From the NCBI GenBank assembly GCA_964561935.1, contig CAZLQX010000003.1, positions 66,848 through 130,847 of the forward strand: a stretch of 64,000 bases of DNA. The letters run 5' to 3'. The notes beneath the pieces were generated by a model. It worked only from the letters and a program-made list of their open reading frames with translations, made no database searches and was not told the origin of the DNA. The stretch is from an uncultured Holophagales bacterium (GTDB taxonomy: Bacteria > Acidobacteriota > Thermoanaerobaculia > UBA5066). Of this stretch, positions 40,889-50,854 are shown piece after piece (the stretch's first letter is position 1; each line of letters starts with the position of its first letter). The position numbers and the translations under genes were made by a program.

Positions 40889-41845
40889 CTACGCCTCGCG
40901 CGCGCCCCGCGGCGAGACGGCGTGGACGCTCGCGTCGGCCTCGACGCCGAGCGCGCGGAAGGCCTTCTCGGCCGCCTTCGCGATCTTCGCGGGGGCGGGG
41001 CCCTCCTCCGACAGCGCGAGGATCGTCGGGCCCGCGCCGGCGAGGGTCCAGCCGAGGGCGCCCGCCTTCCGCATCGCTCCGGTGACCTCGTCCCACCCCG
41101 GGACGAGGGCGCGCCGGCGCGGCTCGGCGATCCGGTCGCGCCGCATCCAGGTCCCGGCGGCGCCGAGGTCGCCGCGGTGGAGCGCGTCGATGAGGGCGGC
41201 GAGCGCGGCGGCCTGCCGCGTCGCCTCCGCGAGCGGCACCTCCCGCGGCAGGACGCGCCGGGCGTCCTTCGTCTCGAGCTCGGCGTCCGGGTGGACGAGG
41301 ACGAGCCTCAGGCCCGGCGGGACGGGGAGCGGGACGGGCGGGACGTAGTCGGCCGGGTCGGACGACGGGACGAGGACGAGGCCGCCGAGGATCGAGGCGA
41401 AGCCGTTGTCGCCGTGCCAGGAGCCGTCCGCCGCGTTCTCTCCGCGGAGGACCGCCTCGAGGAGGACGCGCAGCCTTCGCTCGCCGAGGAGGAGCGCGGC
41501 CGCCTTCGCGCCCGCGGCCGCGGAGGCCGCCGAGGAGCCGAGGCCGCTCGCGAGCGGGAGCCCCTTCTCGAGCGCGAGCTCGATGCCGGTGCGGGCCGTC
41601 GCGCGTCCGGCGGCGACGGCGGCCTCGAGGACGAACGCGGCGGCGACGGAGGCGGTGTTCCGCTCCGCGTCGAGCGGGAGGCGGCCGCGGTCCCCCTTCA
41701 CCTCGACGAGCCGCACGCCGGGCCGCTTCGAGCGCCAGGCGGCGACGGTGTCGCCGGGGCCGTCGAGCGCCGCGGCGAGGACGTCGAAGCCCGGGCCGAG
41801 GTTCGCGACCGTCGCGGGGGCGAAGGCGCGGACGGGCGCGCTCAC
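40889..41845 (-). CDS. thrB: homoserine kinase
   Basis: GTG start overlaps the lysC stop (GTGA). Contains the GHMP kinase motifs ANLGPGFD and PLASGLGSSAA. Confidence 0.8.
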   Translation of the reverse strand: MSAPVRAFAPATVANLGPGFDVLAAALDGPGDTVAAWRSKRPGVRLVEVKGDRGRLPLDAERNTASVAAAFVLEAAVAAGRATARTGIELALEKGLPLASGLGSSAASAAAGAKAAALLLGERRLRVLLEAVLRGENAADGSWHGDNGFASILGGLVLVPSSDPADYVPPVPLPVPPGLRLVLVHPDAELETKDARRVLPREVPLAEATRQAAALAALIDALHRGDLGAAGTWMRRDRIAEPRRRALVPGWDEVTGAMRKAGALGWTLAGAGPTILALSEEGPAPAKIAKAAEKAFRALGVEADASVHAVSPRGAREA

Positions 41846-43248
41846 CGCGTCACCGCCGCGTGGAGCGCCTTCACGGAGGCCGCTCGGTCCCTCTCGTCGA
41901 CGACGAAGGAGATGTTGCACTCGGAGGAGCCCTGGGCGATCGCTTCCACGTTCACTCCCGCGCGCGCGACGGCGGCGAAGACCTTCGCCGCGATCCCGAC
42001 GGTGCCGCGCATCCCGTCCCCGACGGCCGCGACGACGGCGACGGGCGAACGCGCCGCCACGCCGTCGATCGAGCCGACGAGCTTCTCGTACCGGAACTCG
42101 TCCGCGAGCGCGGCCGCGACCCGCGCGCGGTCCGCCTCGGGGAGGACGAGGGCGATGTTCTGCTCGGAGGAGGCCTGGGAGATCATGACGACGGAGGCGC
42201 CGAGCCGCGCCGTCGTCTGGAAGACGCGCGCCGCGATCCCCGGGACGCCGCTCATCCCCTTCCCGTCGAGCGAGAGGAGGCAGAGGCCGGAGACGGAGGT
42301 CACGGCCCGGATGCCGGGACGCGGGTCCCCCTTCTCGGAGATCGTCGTCCCGGGGCCGTCCGGGGCGAACGAGTTCCGGATGACGAGAGGGATCCGGGCG
42401 GCGATCGCGGGGAGGACGGCGGGGAAGTGGAGGACCTTCGCGCCGAAGTAGGTCATCTCCGCCGCCTCGCGGTACGAAAGGCGCGTCAGGAGCCGCGCGC
42501 CCGGGACGATCCTCGGGTCGGCCGTCAGGACGCCGTCGACGTCGGTCCAGATGACGACCTCGCGCGCGGAGAGGGCCGCCCCGAGGAGCGCCGCCGTCGT
42601 GTCGGAGCCGGAGCGGCCGAGCGTCGTCGTCTCGCCCTCCGCGGAGCGCGCGACGAACCCGGTCACGACCGGGACGACCCCGCGCGCGAGGAGGCGCCGG
42701 AGGACGCGTCGGACGCGGGGGTCGGAGCGCTTCCGGTCGCACGTCGCCGCGCCGTGCCGCCCATCGGTGACGAGGAGCTCCCGCGCGTCGACGGGGCGGG
42801 CCGGGACGCCGAGAGCCGAAAGGGCCGCCGCGAGGAGCGGCGTGGAGAGCCGTTCGCCGAAGGAGGCGACGAGGTCGGTCACGCGGGGCGTCCGCTCGCG
42901 CAGGAGCGAGATGCCGGCGAGCGCGGTCTCGAGCTCGGCGAGCGGGGCGGGGTCGAAGCGGACGGCGGAGCCCGTGGCGGCGGCGACGCCCGCGGCCGCG
43001 GCGCGGTGCCGCTCGCCGAGGGCGGCGACGGCGCGGCGGGCCGGGGCGAGGCGTCCCCGCTCGGCGTCGTGCGCGGCGCCGAGGAGGACGTCGGTCACGC
43101 CTCCCATGGCCGAGGCGACGGCGACGAGGCGGCGCCGCCGCGCGGCCGCGGCGAGGAGGCCTGCGGCGCGGACGATCCTCTCCGCGTCGCCGAGCGACGT
43201 GCCGCCGAGCTTGTGGACGGCGACGGGGCGGTCACTCGCTCTCGGCAA
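41842..43248 (-). CDS. lysC: aspartate kinase with C-terminal ACT domains
   Basis: TTG start (…KLGGTSLGD). Has an AA_kinase fold and two ACT domains. It overlaps the upstream transposase-like gene by 17 nt. Confidence 0.85.
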   Translation of the reverse strand: MPRASDRPVAVHKLGGTSLGDAERIVRAAGLLAAAARRRRLVAVASAMGGVTDVLLGAAHDAERGRLAPARRAVAALGERHRAAAAGVAAATGSAVRFDPAPLAELETALAGISLLRERTPRVTDLVASFGERLSTPLLAAALSALGVPARPVDARELLVTDGRHGAATCDRKRSDPRVRRVLRRLLARGVVPVVTGFVARSAEGETTTLGRSGSDTTAALLGAALSAREVVIWTDVDGVLTADPRIVPGARLLTRLSYREAAEMTYFGAKVLHFPAVLPAIAARIPLVIRNSFAPDGPGTTISEKGDPRPGIRAVTSVSGLCLLSLDGKGMSGVPGIAARVFQTTARLGASVVMISQASSEQNIALVLPEADRARVAAALADEFRYEKLVGSIDGVAARSPVAVVAAVGDGMRGTVGIAAKVFAAVARAGVNVEAIAQGSSECNISFVVDERDRAASVKALHAAVTR

Positions 43249-44173
43249 GGAGCCTCTTCTCCAGCTCGTCGAGCGTCGGACGGAGCGCCTTCCAGCGCCC
43301 CTCCCTGACGTCGCCGAGGACGTTGCTGACGCGCGCCGGCCTCACGCCGAACGCCTCGCCGACCTCGCGGCCGGAGAGGCCGGTGAGCCGCCGCGAGAGC
43401 CAGATCGCGGCGACCTTCGCCGCGTGGGCGTCGGACCGCCCGAGGCCGGTCTCGGGGACGCCGAAGCGCGCCGAGACGGCCGACTTCACGCGCGAGAGCT
43501 CGACGGCGCCGGGCCGGGGACGGCCCGCGGCAGGCGGCGTGAGGAGGAGCGCGCGGGCCTCGCGGGCGAACTCGGGGCTCCCGACGACGAGACCCGGGAG
43601 GGCGCGCTCGCGAAGCGGCCGGATGTTGCGGGTCCCCGAGACGAGCCGCCGGTAGCGCTCGCGCGCCCGCGGCCGGGCCGGGGAGAGGCGCCGGAGCGTC
43701 GCGTCGACCGTGAGCCAGGCGGGCCGCTCGGAGAGCCCGGCGATGGCGGGGGCGCTCGAGTAGCGCCACTCGAGGGCGGCGCGCGCGAGGCGCGCCCTCA
43801 CGGGGGCGAGGGCGACGACGCGCGCCGCCTCGAGGAAGGCCGTCGCGGGGTCGACGAGGAGCGAGCGGAAGCGCCCGTCGAAGAGCGCCCCGGAGCGGCC
43901 GTGCCGGCGGTTGAAGGCCTGGGCGTAGCGCCCCCCGAGGGCGCGCATGCCGGCCGAGAGGTTCGGCGCAGGCGTCTCGAGGAGGAGCTCGACGGAGGAG
44001 CCGAGGAGGGCGTAGGCGTGGACGAGCCAGCCCCGCTCCTCGGCGGTCCGTCCGAGGTCGAGGAGGAAGCGGTCCCGGTCCGCGTCATCCCGGAAGAGCG
44101 GGCTCCGCTCCGGCGCGCGCCATGCGACGTGGTGCACCGCGCCTGCGAGCTCGAGACGGGGAGGGCGGGACAT
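43232..44173 (-). CDS. Y1 (IS200/RayT, COG1943-like) transposase-derived protein fused to DnaA-C-type HTH; HUH and Tyr motifs substituted
   Basis: N-terminus reads HHVAWRAPERSPLFRDDADRDRFLLDL…AYALLGSSVELLL…GGRYAQAFNRRHGRSGALFDGRFRS. The C-terminus reads …AAKVAAIWLSRRLTGLSGREVGEAFGVRPARVSNV (Bac_DnaA_C-like). Confidence 0.7.
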   Translation of the reverse strand: MSRPPRLELAGAVHHVAWRAPERSPLFRDDADRDRFLLDLGRTAEERGWLVHAYALLGSSVELLLETPAPNLSAGMRALGGRYAQAFNRRHGRSGALFDGRFRSLLVDPATAFLEAARVVALAPVRARLARAALEWRYSSAPAIAGLSERPAWLTVDATLRRLSPARPRARERYRRLVSGTRNIRPLRERALPGLVVGSPEFAREARALLLTPPAAGRPRPGAVELSRVKSAVSARFGVPETGLGRSDAHAAKVAAIWLSRRLTGLSGREVGEAFGVRPARVSNVLGDVREGRWKALRPTLDELEKRLLAESE

Positions 44174-44251
44174 GCGCGGCGATTCTAGTGGGAAGGGGCC
44201 GCCGGTCCCCCCGCGCGCCCGGCGGTACGATGCCCGCACCACGAGGGAACG

Positions 44252-46825
44252 ATGGACGACGGGACGCGCGCGCGAGGGGTGAGGTGCGAGGCGCCGCCCG
44301 GCTGGGCGGAGGCGACCGCGCGCCGCGGCGCCACGGACCCTCTCGCCGCGCGGCTCGCCGAGGGAGGGCGGCTCGCCCCGCTCCGCTCCCTCCGCCTCGA
44401 GCCGCGACGCGGAGCGGGAGCGGGGACGGCGCGCCTCCACCTCCCCGAAGGGTCGGGGGACGTCGTGGTCGTCCTTCGCCAGCCGTCGGGCGCGCTCTCG
44501 ATCCACCGTCCCGAGGCGGGTGGGGCGTCGCGGCGCGGGGGCGCGACCGTCGACCTCCCCCTCCTCGCGCCGCGGGCCCGGCGTGCCGGGGAGGCGCCCC
44601 GCGGAGCCGTCGTCCTCGTCCTGGCCGCCGCCGCGCGCGTCGAGGCGCGCGCCGCGCGAACGCTCGCCCGCGTCTTCGAGGAGGCCGCGTTCCGGAGGGC
44701 CGGGCTCGTCGAGGGGCTCGTCCACGCCACGCCCGAGGGCTTCCGCGAGGGCCGGCTCGCCGCCGCACCGAGGGACCTCCTCGCGGCGCCCCCCGCGCGG
44801 AACCTCCTTCTCCTCCACGGCACCTTCTCGTCCACGGCCGCCGCGTTCGCGGGCCTCGCCCGGAGCGGCGTCCTCCCGGCGCTCGCGCCCCGCTACGGCG
44901 GCCGCGTCGTCGGATTCGACCACTTCACCGTGAGCCGGACGCCCGGGGAGACCGCGCGGAGGCTCGCTTCCGCGCTGCCGGCCGGCGGGATCTTCCTTTT
45001 CGACGTCGTCGCCCACTCGCGCGGGGGCCTCGTTCTCCGGACGCTCGTCGAGAGCCCCGGCCGGGTCGGGCCGTGTGCCGGCCGGTTCACCGCGGGGAGC
45101 GTCGTTCTCGCCGGGGTCCCGAATCTCGGCACGCCCCTCGCCTCACCCGACCGCTGGGAGCTCGCGCTCGCGGGCTGGCTGAACCTCTTCGACCTCCTCC
45201 CTCCCGCTCCCGCGCCGCTCCTCGGCGCCTTCGTCGTGGAGGCGCTCCTCTGGCTCGCGCGTCGCGTCACGACGCTCCTCCCCGGCCTCGCCGCGATGGA
45301 CCCGCACGGCGGGACGATCGCGGAGCTCGGCCGGAGCGCCCGGCCGGAGGCCTACTCGGCGATCGCGGCGCGCCACGAGGCGCGCGGAGCGCTCGCGCTC
45401 CGGCTCCTCGACGCCGGCGTCGGCTGCTTCTTCGGAGAGCCGAACGACCTCGTCGTCCCGACGGACGGCTGCGCGTCGCTCTCGCGGGACGGCACCGCAC
45501 GCGTCGCCGACGATCGGGTCGCGCTCCTCGGAACGAGCGGGGCGCCGGCGAGCCACTTCGACCTCCTCTCCTGCGAGGAGGGGGCGGCGTTCGTCGTCGC
45601 CGCGCTCGGCGGCGGGGGCGGGCCGGGCGGTCGCCGGGGAGCGCGGAGGTCGGCTCCCGGCGAGGACCGGGCGGTGCGGCAGGCGCGGCGAAGGCCGGCC
45701 TCCGCGGCTCGCGGCGGCGCGTCGCCCGCGCGTCTCGGCGAGCCGCGGCGCGAGGCGCTGGAGCTGACCCTCCTCCCCGGAGACCGGCGCGACGCGACCG
45801 CCCTCCTGTTCGCCAGATTCGGCGCGGCGCGCGCCGTTGCGGAGGTTCCGCGGAAGGGAGAGGCGTGGAGGGAGATCATCCGGGGACACGAGCGCCTCCG
45901 CGCCCACTACGACGGCGACGGGCGGCCGCTCCCGCCGGCGGCCGCGCTCGAGCGCTGGGGGGCGCTCCTCTTCGAGACCCTCTTCCCCGGCGAGGTGCGG
46001 AGGCTCTGGGACGCCGCGCGCGGGGCCGCGGGGGGCGTCCCGACGGACGTCGTCTTCACGTCGCTCCTCGACTGGGTCGCCGACAAGCCGTGGGAGCTCG
46101 CGTTCGACCCTCACCGCCGCGCGTGGCTCGCCGCGACCGAGGCGTGCTTCGTGAGGAACGTCGTCACGGCGATCCCGTGCGAGGCGCGGCCGCGCCGCCG
46201 CGGGAAGCTCGCGATCGTCGTCGCGGCGGCGCAGCCGGCGGGCCTGACGCCCCTCTCCTGGGAGGAGGAGGCCGAGGCGGTCCGGGCGGGGCTCGCGCCG
46301 CTCTCCGCCGCCGGCCTCGCCCGGATCCGCGTCGAGCGGGCCGTGACCGTCGAGGCGCTCCACCGTCTCGTCGCGGACGGGCCGTGCGACGTCCTCCACT
46401 TCGTCGGCCACGGCGCGTGGGACGCGGAGCGGAGGGTCGGGGCGCTCCTCTTGGAGTCCGCCTCCGGAGGCGCGGCGCCCGTCGAGGCGCCCGTCCTCCG
46501 ATCGCTTCTCGCGGGACGGGGTCTTTCGCTCGTCGTCCTGAACGCCTGCCAGAGCGCCCGCGGGAGCCGGTCCGACCTCGCCCGGGGGGTCGCGCCCGCG
46601 CTCGTCGCCGCGGGGGTACCGGCCGTCGTCGCGAACCAGTTCAGCGTCCTCGACGCCGCTGCGCTCGTCTTCGCGCGGGAGCTCTACCGGTCGCTCGCCC
46701 TCGGGCGGGCGCTCGGCGACGCGGCGCGCGAGGCGCGGCTCGCGGTGAGGTGCGACGCCGCGTGCGGGCCTCTCGACTGGGCCGTGCCGGTCGTCTACGC
46801 GCGAGACCCCGGCGCCGTCCTCTGA
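44252..46825 (+). CDS. fusion protein: N-terminal alpha/beta-hydrolase (lipase/PGAP1/DUF676-like, AHSRGG nucleophile elbow) plus C-terminal CHAT (caspase-like His-Cys) domain
   Basis: ATG with GAGGG upstream. N-terminal region has LLLLHGTFSST…DVVAHSRGGLV. C-terminal region has KLAIVVAAAQP…LHFVGHGAWD…LVVLNACQSA. Confidence 0.75.
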   Translation: MDDGTRARGVRCEAPPGWAEATARRGATDPLAARLAEGGRLAPLRSLRLEPRRGAGAGTARLHLPEGSGDVVVVLRQPSGALSIHRPEAGGASRRGGATVDLPLLAPRARRAGEAPRGAVVLVLAAAARVEARAARTLARVFEEAAFRRAGLVEGLVHATPEGFREGRLAAAPRDLLAAPPARNLLLLHGTFSSTAAAFAGLARSGVLPALAPRYGGRVVGFDHFTVSRTPGETARRLASALPAGGIFLFDVVAHSRGGLVLRTLVESPGRVGPCAGRFTAGSVVLAGVPNLGTPLASPDRWELALAGWLNLFDLLPPAPAPLLGAFVVEALLWLARRVTTLLPGLAAMDPHGGTIAELGRSARPEAYSAIAARHEARGALALRLLDAGVGCFFGEPNDLVVPTDGCASLSRDGTARVADDRVALLGTSGAPASHFDLLSCEEGAAFVVAALGGGGGPGGRRGARRSAPGEDRAVRQARRRPASAARGGASPARLGEPRREALELTLLPGDRRDATALLFARFGAARAVAEVPRKGEAWREIIRGHERLRAHYDGDGRPLPPAAALERWGALLFETLFPGEVRRLWDAARGAAGGVPTDVVFTSLLDWVADKPWELAFDPHRRAWLAATEACFVRNVVTAIPCEARPRRRGKLAIVVAAAQPAGLTPLSWEEEAEAVRAGLAPLSAAGLARIRVERAVTVEALHRLVADGPCDVLHFVGHGAWDAERRVGALLLESASGGAAPVEAPVLRSLLAGRGLSLVVLNACQSARGSRSDLARGVAPALVAAGVPAVVANQFSVLDAAALVFARELYRSLALGRALGDAAREARLAVRCDAACGPLDWAVPVVYARDPGAVL

Positions 46826-49315: not shown

Positions 49316-49337
49316 CGCGCCGCGGCGATCTACGGGA

Positions 49338-49518
49338 CGCGCCGCATGCCGCGGGGAGGCTCGTGGCGAGCCTCCCCGATCCGCTCCGGCTTCCCGATCG
49401 AGGGGAGGCGCCGGAGGCGCCGCGGGGAGGCTCGTGGCGAGCCTCCCCGATCCGCTTCGGGGTTCCCGATCGAGGGGAGGCGCCGGAGGCGCCGCGGGGA
49501 CGCTCGTGGCGAGCCTCC
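49338..49518. repeat. REP-like tandem repeat array: about 2.5 copies of a 71-72 bp unit, each with a perfect 11-bp stem / 3-nt loop hairpin
   Basis: Unit: GCCGCGGGGAGGCTCGTGGCGAGCCTCCCCGATCCGCT(C/T)CGG(C/GG)TTCCCGATCGAGGGGAGGCGCCGGAGGC. Copies start at 49338, 49409 and 49481, and the third is partial with one stem mismatch. The array lies between convergent genes. Confidence 0.7.
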
Positions 49519-49528
49519 CCGATCCGCT

Positions 49529-50854
49529 CTATGCCGAGAGCCGCGGGTTCAGGGCGATCGCCTTGTTGAGCGCCTCGACCGCCGCCTCGAACTTCTTGAG
49601 CCCCTCGTAGGTCGTCTTCATCGCGTACCACGCCTCGGCGTAGTCGCTCTTGAGGGCGACGGCCTTCTTCAGGTGCCCGAGCGCCTCGTCGAAGGCGAGC
49701 TCCCGGTTCGCGGCGAGGCCGAGCCCGTAGTGCGCTTCCGCGCAGGAGGCGTCGCCGTCGAGCGCCGCCCGGAATGCCTCGGCGGCCTCGGGGAGCTTCC
49801 CTTCCTCCAGGAGCGCCATCCCGTGCGCGGCGTGGACGGGGGCGCTCTTCGGGTCGATCTCGACGGCCCTCTCGAACGTCTTCTGGGCGTCGCGGAACTT
49901 CTTCATCCGCCCGTAGGCGAGGATCGCGCACGCGGGGAGGAGCGGGTCCTTCGGGAACTTGCGCGAGGCCGCCTGGGTGGTCTCGACCGTTCCCTGGAAG
50001 TCGCCCGACTCGAGGAGCGCCCGGGCCGTCTTCAGGTGGAGCTCCGGGTCGTCCTTGTGCTGCTCGAGCGCCGTCCGGAGCGGCTTCACCGCCGAGGCGA
50101 AGTCCTTCGCTTCGTAGAGGGCAAGGCCGAGCTTCCGGTGGACGGGAGAGGTGTCGGGCGCCGTCTTCGCCGAGATCTTGTAGTTCTCGAGGGCGGTCTT
50201 CAGCTTCCCGCCGAGCTTCATGAGGTCGCCGAGGTTCTCGAAGAGGAGAGGGTCCGTCGAGGTGCGCGCCGCCTTCCTCAGGCGGAGCCGGGCCCGCTCC
50301 GCGTCGCCGCGCGAGTAGTCGACGAGGGCGAGCATGTGAAGGAGAGGCGCGTCCTCCACACCTCCCTGCTCGGCCCACGACTCGACGTCCTTCAGGATCT
50401 TCCGCGCCTCCTCGGTGAGGGTCTTCGGGTGGTCCCCGGCGAGCTCCTCGAGCCGCTCGGGGAAGCCGTCGGCGGCGAGGCGCTGGCGGAGCGTCTCGAA
50501 GGCCTCCCGGGCCTTCCGGCCGAAGAAGAAGCGCTGGGTCGTCTGCTCCCGTTTCGCCCTGTCGGCGAGGGAGTCCCTCTCGGCCGTGGCCGCCGCGAGC
50601 TGCTCCTCGGCAGCGGCGAGGCGGGCCTCGAGGTCCGCGGACCTCTCGGCGAGGGCGGTCCGTTCCGCAGAGACGGTCTCCAGCTCGCGCGCGATCCGCG
50701 CCCTTTCGGTCTCGACCTCGGCGAGACCTTCCCGGAGCTTCGAGGCTTCCTCGGTCGAGGAGGTCTTCAGGGCGGAGAGGGAGCGGAAGAGGACGACGGC
50801 GGTGACGACGGCCACGGCCGCGAGGGCGAGGGCGACGAGCAGTCCTGTCGACAA
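49529..50854 (-). CDS. membrane-anchored coiled-coil / TPR-repeat protein
   Basis: TTG start with GGAGG 6 nt upstream. Has an N-terminal TM segment, a coiled coil, then 6 or more TPR units. Confidence 0.65.
   Translation of the reverse strand: MSTGLLVALALAAVAVVTAVVLFRSLSALKTSSTEEASKLREGLAEVETERARIARELETVSAERTALAERSADLEARLAAAEEQLAAATAERDSLADRAKREQTTQRFFFGRKAREAFETLRQRLAADGFPERLEELAGDHPKTLTEEARKILKDVESWAEQGGVEDAPLLHMLALVDYSRGDAERARLRLRKAARTSTDPLLFENLGDLMKLGGKLKTALENYKISAKTAPDTSPVHRKLGLALYEAKDFASAVKPLRTALEQHKDDPELHLKTARALLESGDFQGTVETTQAASRKFPKDPLLPACAILAYGRMKKFRDAQKTFERAVEIDPKSAPVHAAHGMALLEEGKLPEAAEAFRAALDGDASCAEAHYGLGLAANRELAFDEALGHLKKAVALKSDYAEAWYAMKTTYEGLKKFEAAVEALNKAIALNPRLSA

Follow-up and report, generated by a model that had tools for sequence, protein, structure and literature searches.

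A Y1 transposase-like protein without catalytic residues, conserved at one chromosomal site in the Holophagales/Thermoanaerobaculia lineage

The window analysed here is a 64,000-nucleotide (nt) stretch of the genome of an uncultured Holophagales bacterium (Thermoanaerobaculia, Acidobacteriota; assembly GCA_964561935.1, contig CAZLQX010000003.1), with a G+C content of 70-79%. On its minus strand, at 43232..44173, lies a gene of 313 codons and a TGA stop (N-terminus MSRPPRLELAG, C-terminus LLAESE), whose product resembles the Y1 transposases of the RayT type. The initial annotation, whose coordinates (43232-44173, minus strand, 313 aa) and quoted peptide strings are all present in the sequence, described this product as a domesticated and catalytically dead transposase. 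The gene is likely to be an exapted derivative of a Y1 transposase associated with terminal inverted repeats (TIRs), of the type named TnpAREP 2.1.2 or TIRYT, that is no longer able to move.

To our knowledge, transposases of the RAYT type keep their nuclease residues in every case studied so far. They are regarded as domesticated, with a benefit to the host that is unknown (Bertels et al. 2017, PMC5581495). The clade to which the window protein belongs has lost the four catalytic residues and stays as constrained as a core biosynthetic gene, which argues that recognition by an HUH fold and a helix-turn-helix (HTH) domain, without cutting, can be what selection maintains. This clade, called dead below for the loss of these residues, is also a clean system for finding the binding targets of such proteins.

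Domains and former active site of the window protein

The start codon is supported by the aligned N-termini, as orthologues and relatives all open at an MxRPxR motif, and by a conserved -10-like hexamer just upstream. An upstream alignment of four orthologous loci places this hexamer, TAGAAT in the window (44182..44187, minus strand) and TACAAT in the orthologues, 8 nt before the ATG. A longer mechanical open reading frame (ORF) reaching 45016 was rejected as a high-GC artefact on the basis of the MxRPxR alignment and the conserved A/T-rich hexamer.

The initial annotation had proposed a RayT/Y1-like N-terminal domain and a C-terminal HTH resembling DnaA domain IV, and had named a structure prediction and an alignment with RayT as checks. 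The AlphaFold model of the window protein has a mean confidence score (pLDDT) of 88.4, and both folds were recovered in it. The Y1/HUH-fold domain comprises aa 1-145 (43739..44173, minus strand). The best Foldseek match of the model was the E. coli TnpAREP structure 4ER8 (E=4e-7, template modelling (TM) score 0.77), followed by the TnpA proteins of ISDra2, IS608 and IS200. In the sequence, the NCBIfam model REP_Tyr_transpos (NF047646) matched aa 5-139 with E=1.4e-8, its 34.7 bits being below the curated cut-off of 80. The Pfam model Y1_Tnp (PF01797) gave no match to the window protein at E<=1; the intact relatives P0032, P0039 and P0067 pass its threshold.

The C-terminal 88 aa (aa 226-313; 43235..43498, minus strand) form the DnaA domain IV-like HTH. 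Foldseek aligned this part with DnaA domain IV (3PVP and 1J1V) at a TM score of 0.81 and a root-mean-square deviation of 1.9-2.3 A. When the family profile was searched against solved structures, DnaA domain IV (1J1V) was matched with E=2.3e-6 and TnpAREP 4ER8, the sole match other than DnaA, with E=5.6e-6 to 8e-6. Pfam Bac_DnaA_C was found at aa 229-278 below threshold (E=0.017), and the DnaA model TIGR00362 reached E=0.31, restricted to aa 224-278. Similarity to DnaA is confined to this domain IV-like part; no AAA+ domain was found by Pfam search, and other DnaA domains are likewise missing from the window protein. HMMER aligns 'PARVS' of the window protein with the segment 'DHTTV' of E. coli DnaA, which we take to be the one making DnaA-box base contacts in 1J1V. 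The HTH would, because of this replacement, be expected to differ from DnaA in specificity. Both proposed domains were thus confirmed, by the NCBIfam and profile matches as well as by structure: the window protein has kept a Y1/HUH fold and a DnaA-domain-IV-type HTH.

Between the two lies a middle region (aa 146-225; 43499..43738, minus strand) that is helical by secondary structure and pLDDT, carries a conserved W-x-W/Y-S-S motif at its N-terminal edge, and is under weaker constraint than both flanking domains. Bromodomain matches to aa 157-207 in a single-sequence PDB search (E~0.008) were treated as chance similarity of a low-complexity linker.

The active site of TnpAREP consists of Y115, H59-M60-H61, N119, H123 and E161 (Messing et al. 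2012, PMC3479197). Residues were mapped by an HMMER alignment of the N-terminal profile to 4ER8, with the catalytic residues as given in that paper. In the window protein H59, M60 and H61 correspond to S60, V61 and E62, Y115, the catalytic tyrosine on helix alpha-D, corresponds to V119, and N119 to A123, so that the catalytic or metal-binding residues are replaced at four of four positions. The former HUH motif, now S60-V61-E62 (tcc gtc gag; 43988..43996, minus strand), aligns with H59-M60-H61 and with NHYH of the relatives. The signature of class-2 TnpAREP is given as 'Y---NP' by Quentin et al. (2018, PMC6006769). In the window protein the former motif reads V119-V-A-L-A123 (43805..43819, minus strand) and is followed by P124, the only residue of it to survive. 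Intact relatives have NHYHLL and RYIVLNPVRAG in exactly the columns that are replaced. The loss of the HUH histidines and of the catalytic tyrosine, as first annotated, was upheld by these alignments, and to it the metal-ligand Asn is now added. A wrong motif register was rejected, since 4ER8 and more than 130 intact relatives, once aligned, fix the columns. With both histidines of HUH, the nucleophilic Tyr and the Asn that acts as metal ligand all replaced, the known Y1 cleavage and ligation chemistry should be unavailable to the window protein.

The same losses are found in all of about 30 orthologue clusters, with S/T-x-x-E where HUH stood and V, S or A in place of the Tyr. Every full-length orthologue listed in the full motif census has E62, which might in principle bind metal. 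One may ask if the protein is a nuclease or transposase that is still active by means of other residues, for example with metal ligands supplied by E62 and a further His and the nucleophile by a different Tyr; Y54, Y83, H14, H15 and H52 are at hand. These Tyr and His residues, however, occur as well in relatives with the canonical HUH and Tyr, and so are structural rather than replacements. The former Tyr position is variable among the orthologues, the Pfam model for Y1 transposases misses the domain although it detects intact relatives, and the gene has no TIRs, no second copies and a fixed position. Continued activity is extremely improbable on these grounds.

Mobile relatives, fixed position and selection

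An exhaustive HMMER search for the family, with matches accepted at E<=1e-3, yielded 19,903 cluster representatives. A single 50%-identity cluster (519 bits) contains the whole dead clade, and the next match is intact (212 bits, 42% identity). The nearest relatives (P0032, P0067 and P0068; 42-47% identity) keep HUH, Tyr and Asn, and intact relatives look like TIRtrons, or mobile elements. P0039 occurs in two copies 5.5 kb apart (L008, 366-1428 and 5866-6928), each bounded by TIRs of 17-20 nt. P0032 and P0034 (L009, 5960-6990; L081, 5970-6990) have terminal repeats of 22-24 nt ending GGGG(T/G)CA(G/T), those of L009 being in direct rather than inverted orientation. The repeats of L009 and L081, TGTATAAT..AGA..TG.CCCC, contain the extended -10 promoter TGTATAAT. 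P0039, P0032 and P0034 all lie in unrelated neighbourhoods.

A Y1 core joined to a Bac_DnaA_C-like HTH is the published architecture of TnpAREP subclass 2.1.2, the TIRYTs (TIR-associated tyrosine transposases), among which one group is specific to Acidobacteria (Di Nocera et al. 2013, PMC3733652; Quentin et al. 2018, PMC6006769). The window protein shares with this subclass the class-2 Y1 core, the W-x-W-S-S serine motif, the C-terminal HTH and a length of about 310-325 aa. It differs in being without the HuH, the Tyr and the Asn of 'Y---NP', and its gene differs in having no flanking TIRs and a single, vertically inherited site in every locus examined. According to the selection procedure of Quentin, Siguier, Chandler and Fichant (2018, PMC6006769), only proteins with both motifs were retained and the others were set aside as presumably non-functional. 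The window protein descends from subclass 2.1.2, yet falls outside the published inclusion rule of HuH plus Y. Apart from two papers, both on the intact family, full-text searches of the literature for inactive derivatives of RAYT or TIRYT found nothing. The fusion architecture is thus already published; what is new is a conserved, vertically inherited and selectively maintained derivative without the catalytic residues.

E. coli TnpAREP/RayT (YafM, 4ER8), the best structural match, is likewise vertically inherited and housekeeping-like (Bertels et al. 2017, PMC5581495). The identity to the window protein over the structural alignment is only about 14%. RayT keeps H59, H61, Y115 and N119 and cleaves repetitive extragenic palindromic (REP) sequences (PMC3479197), whereas the window protein has lost these residues. 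RayT is flanked by REPs (a REPtron) and has no DnaA-like HTH, whereas the window gene has the HTH and no flanking REPs. In its housekeeping behaviour the window gene resembles RayT, having the same syntenic context in all loci and a ratio of nonsynonymous to synonymous substitution rates (dN/dS) equal to that of the adjacent aspartokinase gene (ask).

The orthologue clusters, at 77-87% identity, all come from metagenomes or from metagenome-assembled genomes (MAGs) of Holophagales, Thermoanaerobaculia or Acidobacteriota. Such MAGs are abundant in wastewater and in anaerobic digesters. Most encode 299-315 aa, and the few shorter ones are from short contigs. All orthologous loci examined have the gene at one identical syntenic site, followed by the aspartokinase (ask; 41842-43248, minus strand, TTG start), a GHMP-family kinase (thrB-like) and a PALP enzyme (thrC-like). 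Around the window gene no inverted repeat exceeded the background set by the high GC content, and ends of the GGGGWSAS type are missing as well. The terminal repeats by which the closest intact relatives are bounded (GGGGYCAKRTCT...) have no full match in the window and one match in short form, which is chance level. By nhmmer, a REP model had no copies beside the orthologues in L001-L007 and in the window matched only the array at 49326-49529, 5.2 kb away. The gene is immobile, at a single fixed chromosomal site as the first gene of the ask-thrB-thrC cluster.

Among four orthologues, dN/dS of the dead gene was 0.17-0.29 by the Nei-Gojobori method, against 0.21-0.28 for ask; such values are approximate at 75-78% GC and were used only relative to ask, which served as the internal control for the extreme GC bias. 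By domain the ratios were 0.12-0.27 (Y1), 0.17-0.35 (middle region) and 0.18-0.27 (HTH). In every orthologue gene that was translated (the window, L001-L007 and L069) the frame is open over its full length, and the family residues R3, R6, R19, D32, N88, R93, G95, G100, R101, R118 and P124-A127, none of them catalytic, are invariant or nearly so; R90 and H91 are conserved too. The HTH helix 'ARVSNV' is identical in the nearest intact relatives. Both domains are under purifying selection. The description as a domesticated, catalytically dead transposase thereby holds at the level of sequence, given the loss of the catalytic tetrad, the dN/dS values, the fixed synteny, the lack of TIR and REP flanks and the intact nearest relatives.

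It may be argued instead that the gene is a decaying TIRtron relic whose DNA is kept only as promoter and translational-coupling context for ask-thrB-thrC, the protein being functionless. Consistent with this, the gene overlaps the ask start, the -10-like box is the only conserved upstream element, and about 10% of long family representatives are without three or more catalytic residues, as expected if many are pseudogenes; proteins of this kind were treated as non-functional by Quentin et al. (PMC6006769). Against this stand the dN/dS equal to that of the housekeeping neighbour and low in both domains, the intact frames in all translated orthologues with most clusters at 299-315 aa, the many invariant non-catalytic residues, and a model that is confident and well folded. 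A pseudogene was rejected on dN/dS and the intact frames, and the relic as a whole is very unlikely.

An exapted derivative has an analogue in TldR. TldR proteins are nuclease-dead derivatives of TnpB that act as RNA-guided transcription factors, with a regulatory function shown experimentally. As is proposed for the window protein, a protein of an IS200/IS605-type element has lost its catalytic residues and has kept target recognition at a fixed locus under selection. TldR differs in being an unrelated, RNA-guided protein of the RuvC fold, whereas the window protein is of the TnpA type with an HUH fold, and any regulatory function of it is putative.

The promoter region and REP-like hairpins as candidate targets

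The end of the dead gene overlaps the TTG start of ask by 17 nt in the window (43232..43248, minus strand) and by 8 nt in the orthologues, which indicates co-transcription and translational coupling with ask-thrB-thrC. Upstream, in a region of about 78% GC, the sole conserved block in four aligned loci is CTA(C/G)AATCG.GGC.C followed by the start codon, and the TA(C/G)AAT box is kept even where the upstream neighbour gene differs. A consensus scan for sigma-70 promoters and intrinsic terminators found nothing. The conserved box suggests that the gene may have its own predicted promoter and a leaderless or very short-leader mRNA, with a predicted start at about 44173-44176, running into ask-thrB-thrC.

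Because the non-catalytic family residues and the HTH are conserved, we infer that binding of nucleic acid, with no cleavage, is what the window protein does. Recognition of a hairpin or single strand would fall, as in 4ER8, to the HUH-fold domain, and that of duplex DNA to the DnaA-IV-type HTH. The specificity of the HTH was probably inherited from the ancestral element, because the sequence of the recognition helix is common to the closest intact relatives. One candidate target is the promoter region of the gene itself, the protein then being an autoregulator or a regulator of the ask-thrB-thrC transcript. Such binding would be a legacy of a transposase that bound the promoter-bearing end of its element: because the ancestral element end carried a promoter, immobilisation upstream of ask would have created a ready-made module of regulator and promoter. 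We regard this target as possible, if doubtful.

Several points weigh against the exaptation reading or against its regulatory form, besides the approximate nature of the dN/dS estimates. The loss of activity is read from the sequence, and no binding site was identified. Within 5 kb of the gene there is no REP or TIR-like sequence, and the alignment shows, upstream of the -10 box, little conservation in which an operator might lie. Shared synteny at about 80% identity is expected from descent alone, and is no proof of a link to the thr genes.

A second candidate is a family of REP-like hairpins, of which the window contains three tandem units of about 72 nt with the hairpin GGGGAGGCTCG-CCA-CGAGCCTCCCC (49326..49529, minus strand), located between convergent genes. 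Elsewhere in the 64 kb window neither the hairpin GGGGAGGCTCG-NNN-CGAGCCTCCCC nor a further nhmmer match was found, and 11-mers with one mismatch were at chance level. An exact-match scan with one genome per species gave 70 loci (L010-L079), almost all in Holophagales/Thermoanaerobaculia MAGs, each genome having many of them. Tandem units are frequent, with a spacing of 65-73 nt and two hairpins per unit, and arrays range from 1 to at least 14 units. The consensus unit reads tGGATC-GGGGAGGCTCG-CCA-CGAGCCTCCCC-GC-GGCGCC-ttc-GGCGCC-TCCCCTCga. Of 61 array-first units, 56 have a stop triplet (TGA or TAG) 1-4 nt before GGATC, compared with about 15% expected from base composition, and the units are always oriented as the upstream gene, across many different genes. 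Hairpins were exact in 91 of 120 units, a uniformity that is inflated by the gathering of the sample by exact match; the remainder had one or two uncompensated changes. The hairpins are a genuine lineage-wide family of the REP/BIME type, whose link to the dead Y1 protein is circumstantial.

If these hairpins were the target, the window protein would be a dedicated binding partner of REP-like elements, an end point of RAYT domestication with recognition kept and cleavage lost, and may mark or organise the hairpin arrays behind stop codons. The dead gene and the hairpins are found in one lineage, with at least four genomes containing both (the window genome, CALBDV01 (L069), JADJVF01 (L065) and JASNYI01), although co-occurrence within a single lineage counts for little as evidence. 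Recognition of REPs or TIRs is documented for RAYT and TIRYT relatives (PMC3479197, PMC3733652), and the REP stem opens with GGGGAGGC, a 7/8 match to the TIRYT TIR motif GGGGWSAS. The hairpins are, with the reservation made above, highly uniform across genomes. Apart from the dead gene, in L065 and L069, no other Y1 ORF was found in about 570 kb of REP-adjacent DNA from about 17 MAGs; this search covered REP-adjacent DNA and not whole genomes, so an intact RAYT may be present elsewhere, and a protein-database profile search aimed at intact Y1 proteins in the lineage gave top matches that were mostly from Nitrospirota. On the other hand, the dead gene itself is not flanked by REPs, the array 5.2 kb away being the only one in the window, and the strict position and orientation of the units after stop codons fit a role at the RNA level that needs no such protein. 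REP-like hairpins as the target, and the protein as their dedicated partner, are rather unlikely.

A stronger form of this proposal is that dead protein and hairpin arrays are one domesticated system, which persists through binding of the arrays just after stop codons. Such binding might serve termination, mRNA 3'-end formation or the handling of conflicts between replication and transcription. If so, binding of REPs could by itself be the 'housekeeping' role that has long been sought for RAYT-like proteins. This form we hold to be distinctly unlikely. For the exapted derivative, the remaining weight among targets falls to another DNA target or to an architectural role.

One copy was found outside the expected lineage: L015 (CAWDOO010000004.1), labelled as a Gammaproteobacteria MAG, contains a full-consensus Holophagales REP unit including its flanks. 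This could be an error of binning or classification, or a transfer.

Neighbouring genes and other dead Y1 proteins

Divergently from the dead gene, at 44252-46825 on the plus strand, lies a gene for an 857-aa protein with DUF7379 (alpha/beta-hydrolase-like) and CHAT protease domains, which gave a weak match to SAVED_CHAT in PADLOC. The dead Y1 gene had no match in the PADLOC search for defence systems, and in some orthologous loci a GDPD gene stands between it and the CHAT neighbour. Membership of the two in a defence system was rejected on these grounds.

A census was made of 136 long sequences, comprising the window protein and 135 long relatives, each of which represents a 50%-identity cluster among the closest ones retrieved. 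At most one of the four catalytic residues was kept in 14 of the 136. One of the 14 is the window protein, and the other 13 make up about 10% of the relatives. Dead representatives besides the window clade include P0035, P0073, P0079, P0102 and P0174. The losses look independent among the 14, because the nearest neighbours of each are intact proteins.

A second dead Y1-like family (L083-L090; P0043-P0065) was found in Burkholderiales. Its members are 219-230 aa long, have no HTH, have lost HUH, Tyr and Asn, and are annotated as 'transposase'. Four diverged members have the conserved gene order aroK-aroB-dgt(HD)-[gene]-gltB. The fixation of this independent family next to gltB shows that stable retention of dead Y1 proteins happened more than once. 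With about 10% of relatives dead and a Burkholderiales family of this kind beside gltB, the non-catalytic reuse of Y1 proteins may be common, and overlooked because surveys discard such sequences.

Of 17 family members (P0067-P0214) without the second histidine of HUH, 11 have Glu or Gln in its place. A lost Tyr is most commonly replaced by His (10 cases), and in the full motif census seven sequences differ in the Tyr alone, HUH and Asn being kept.

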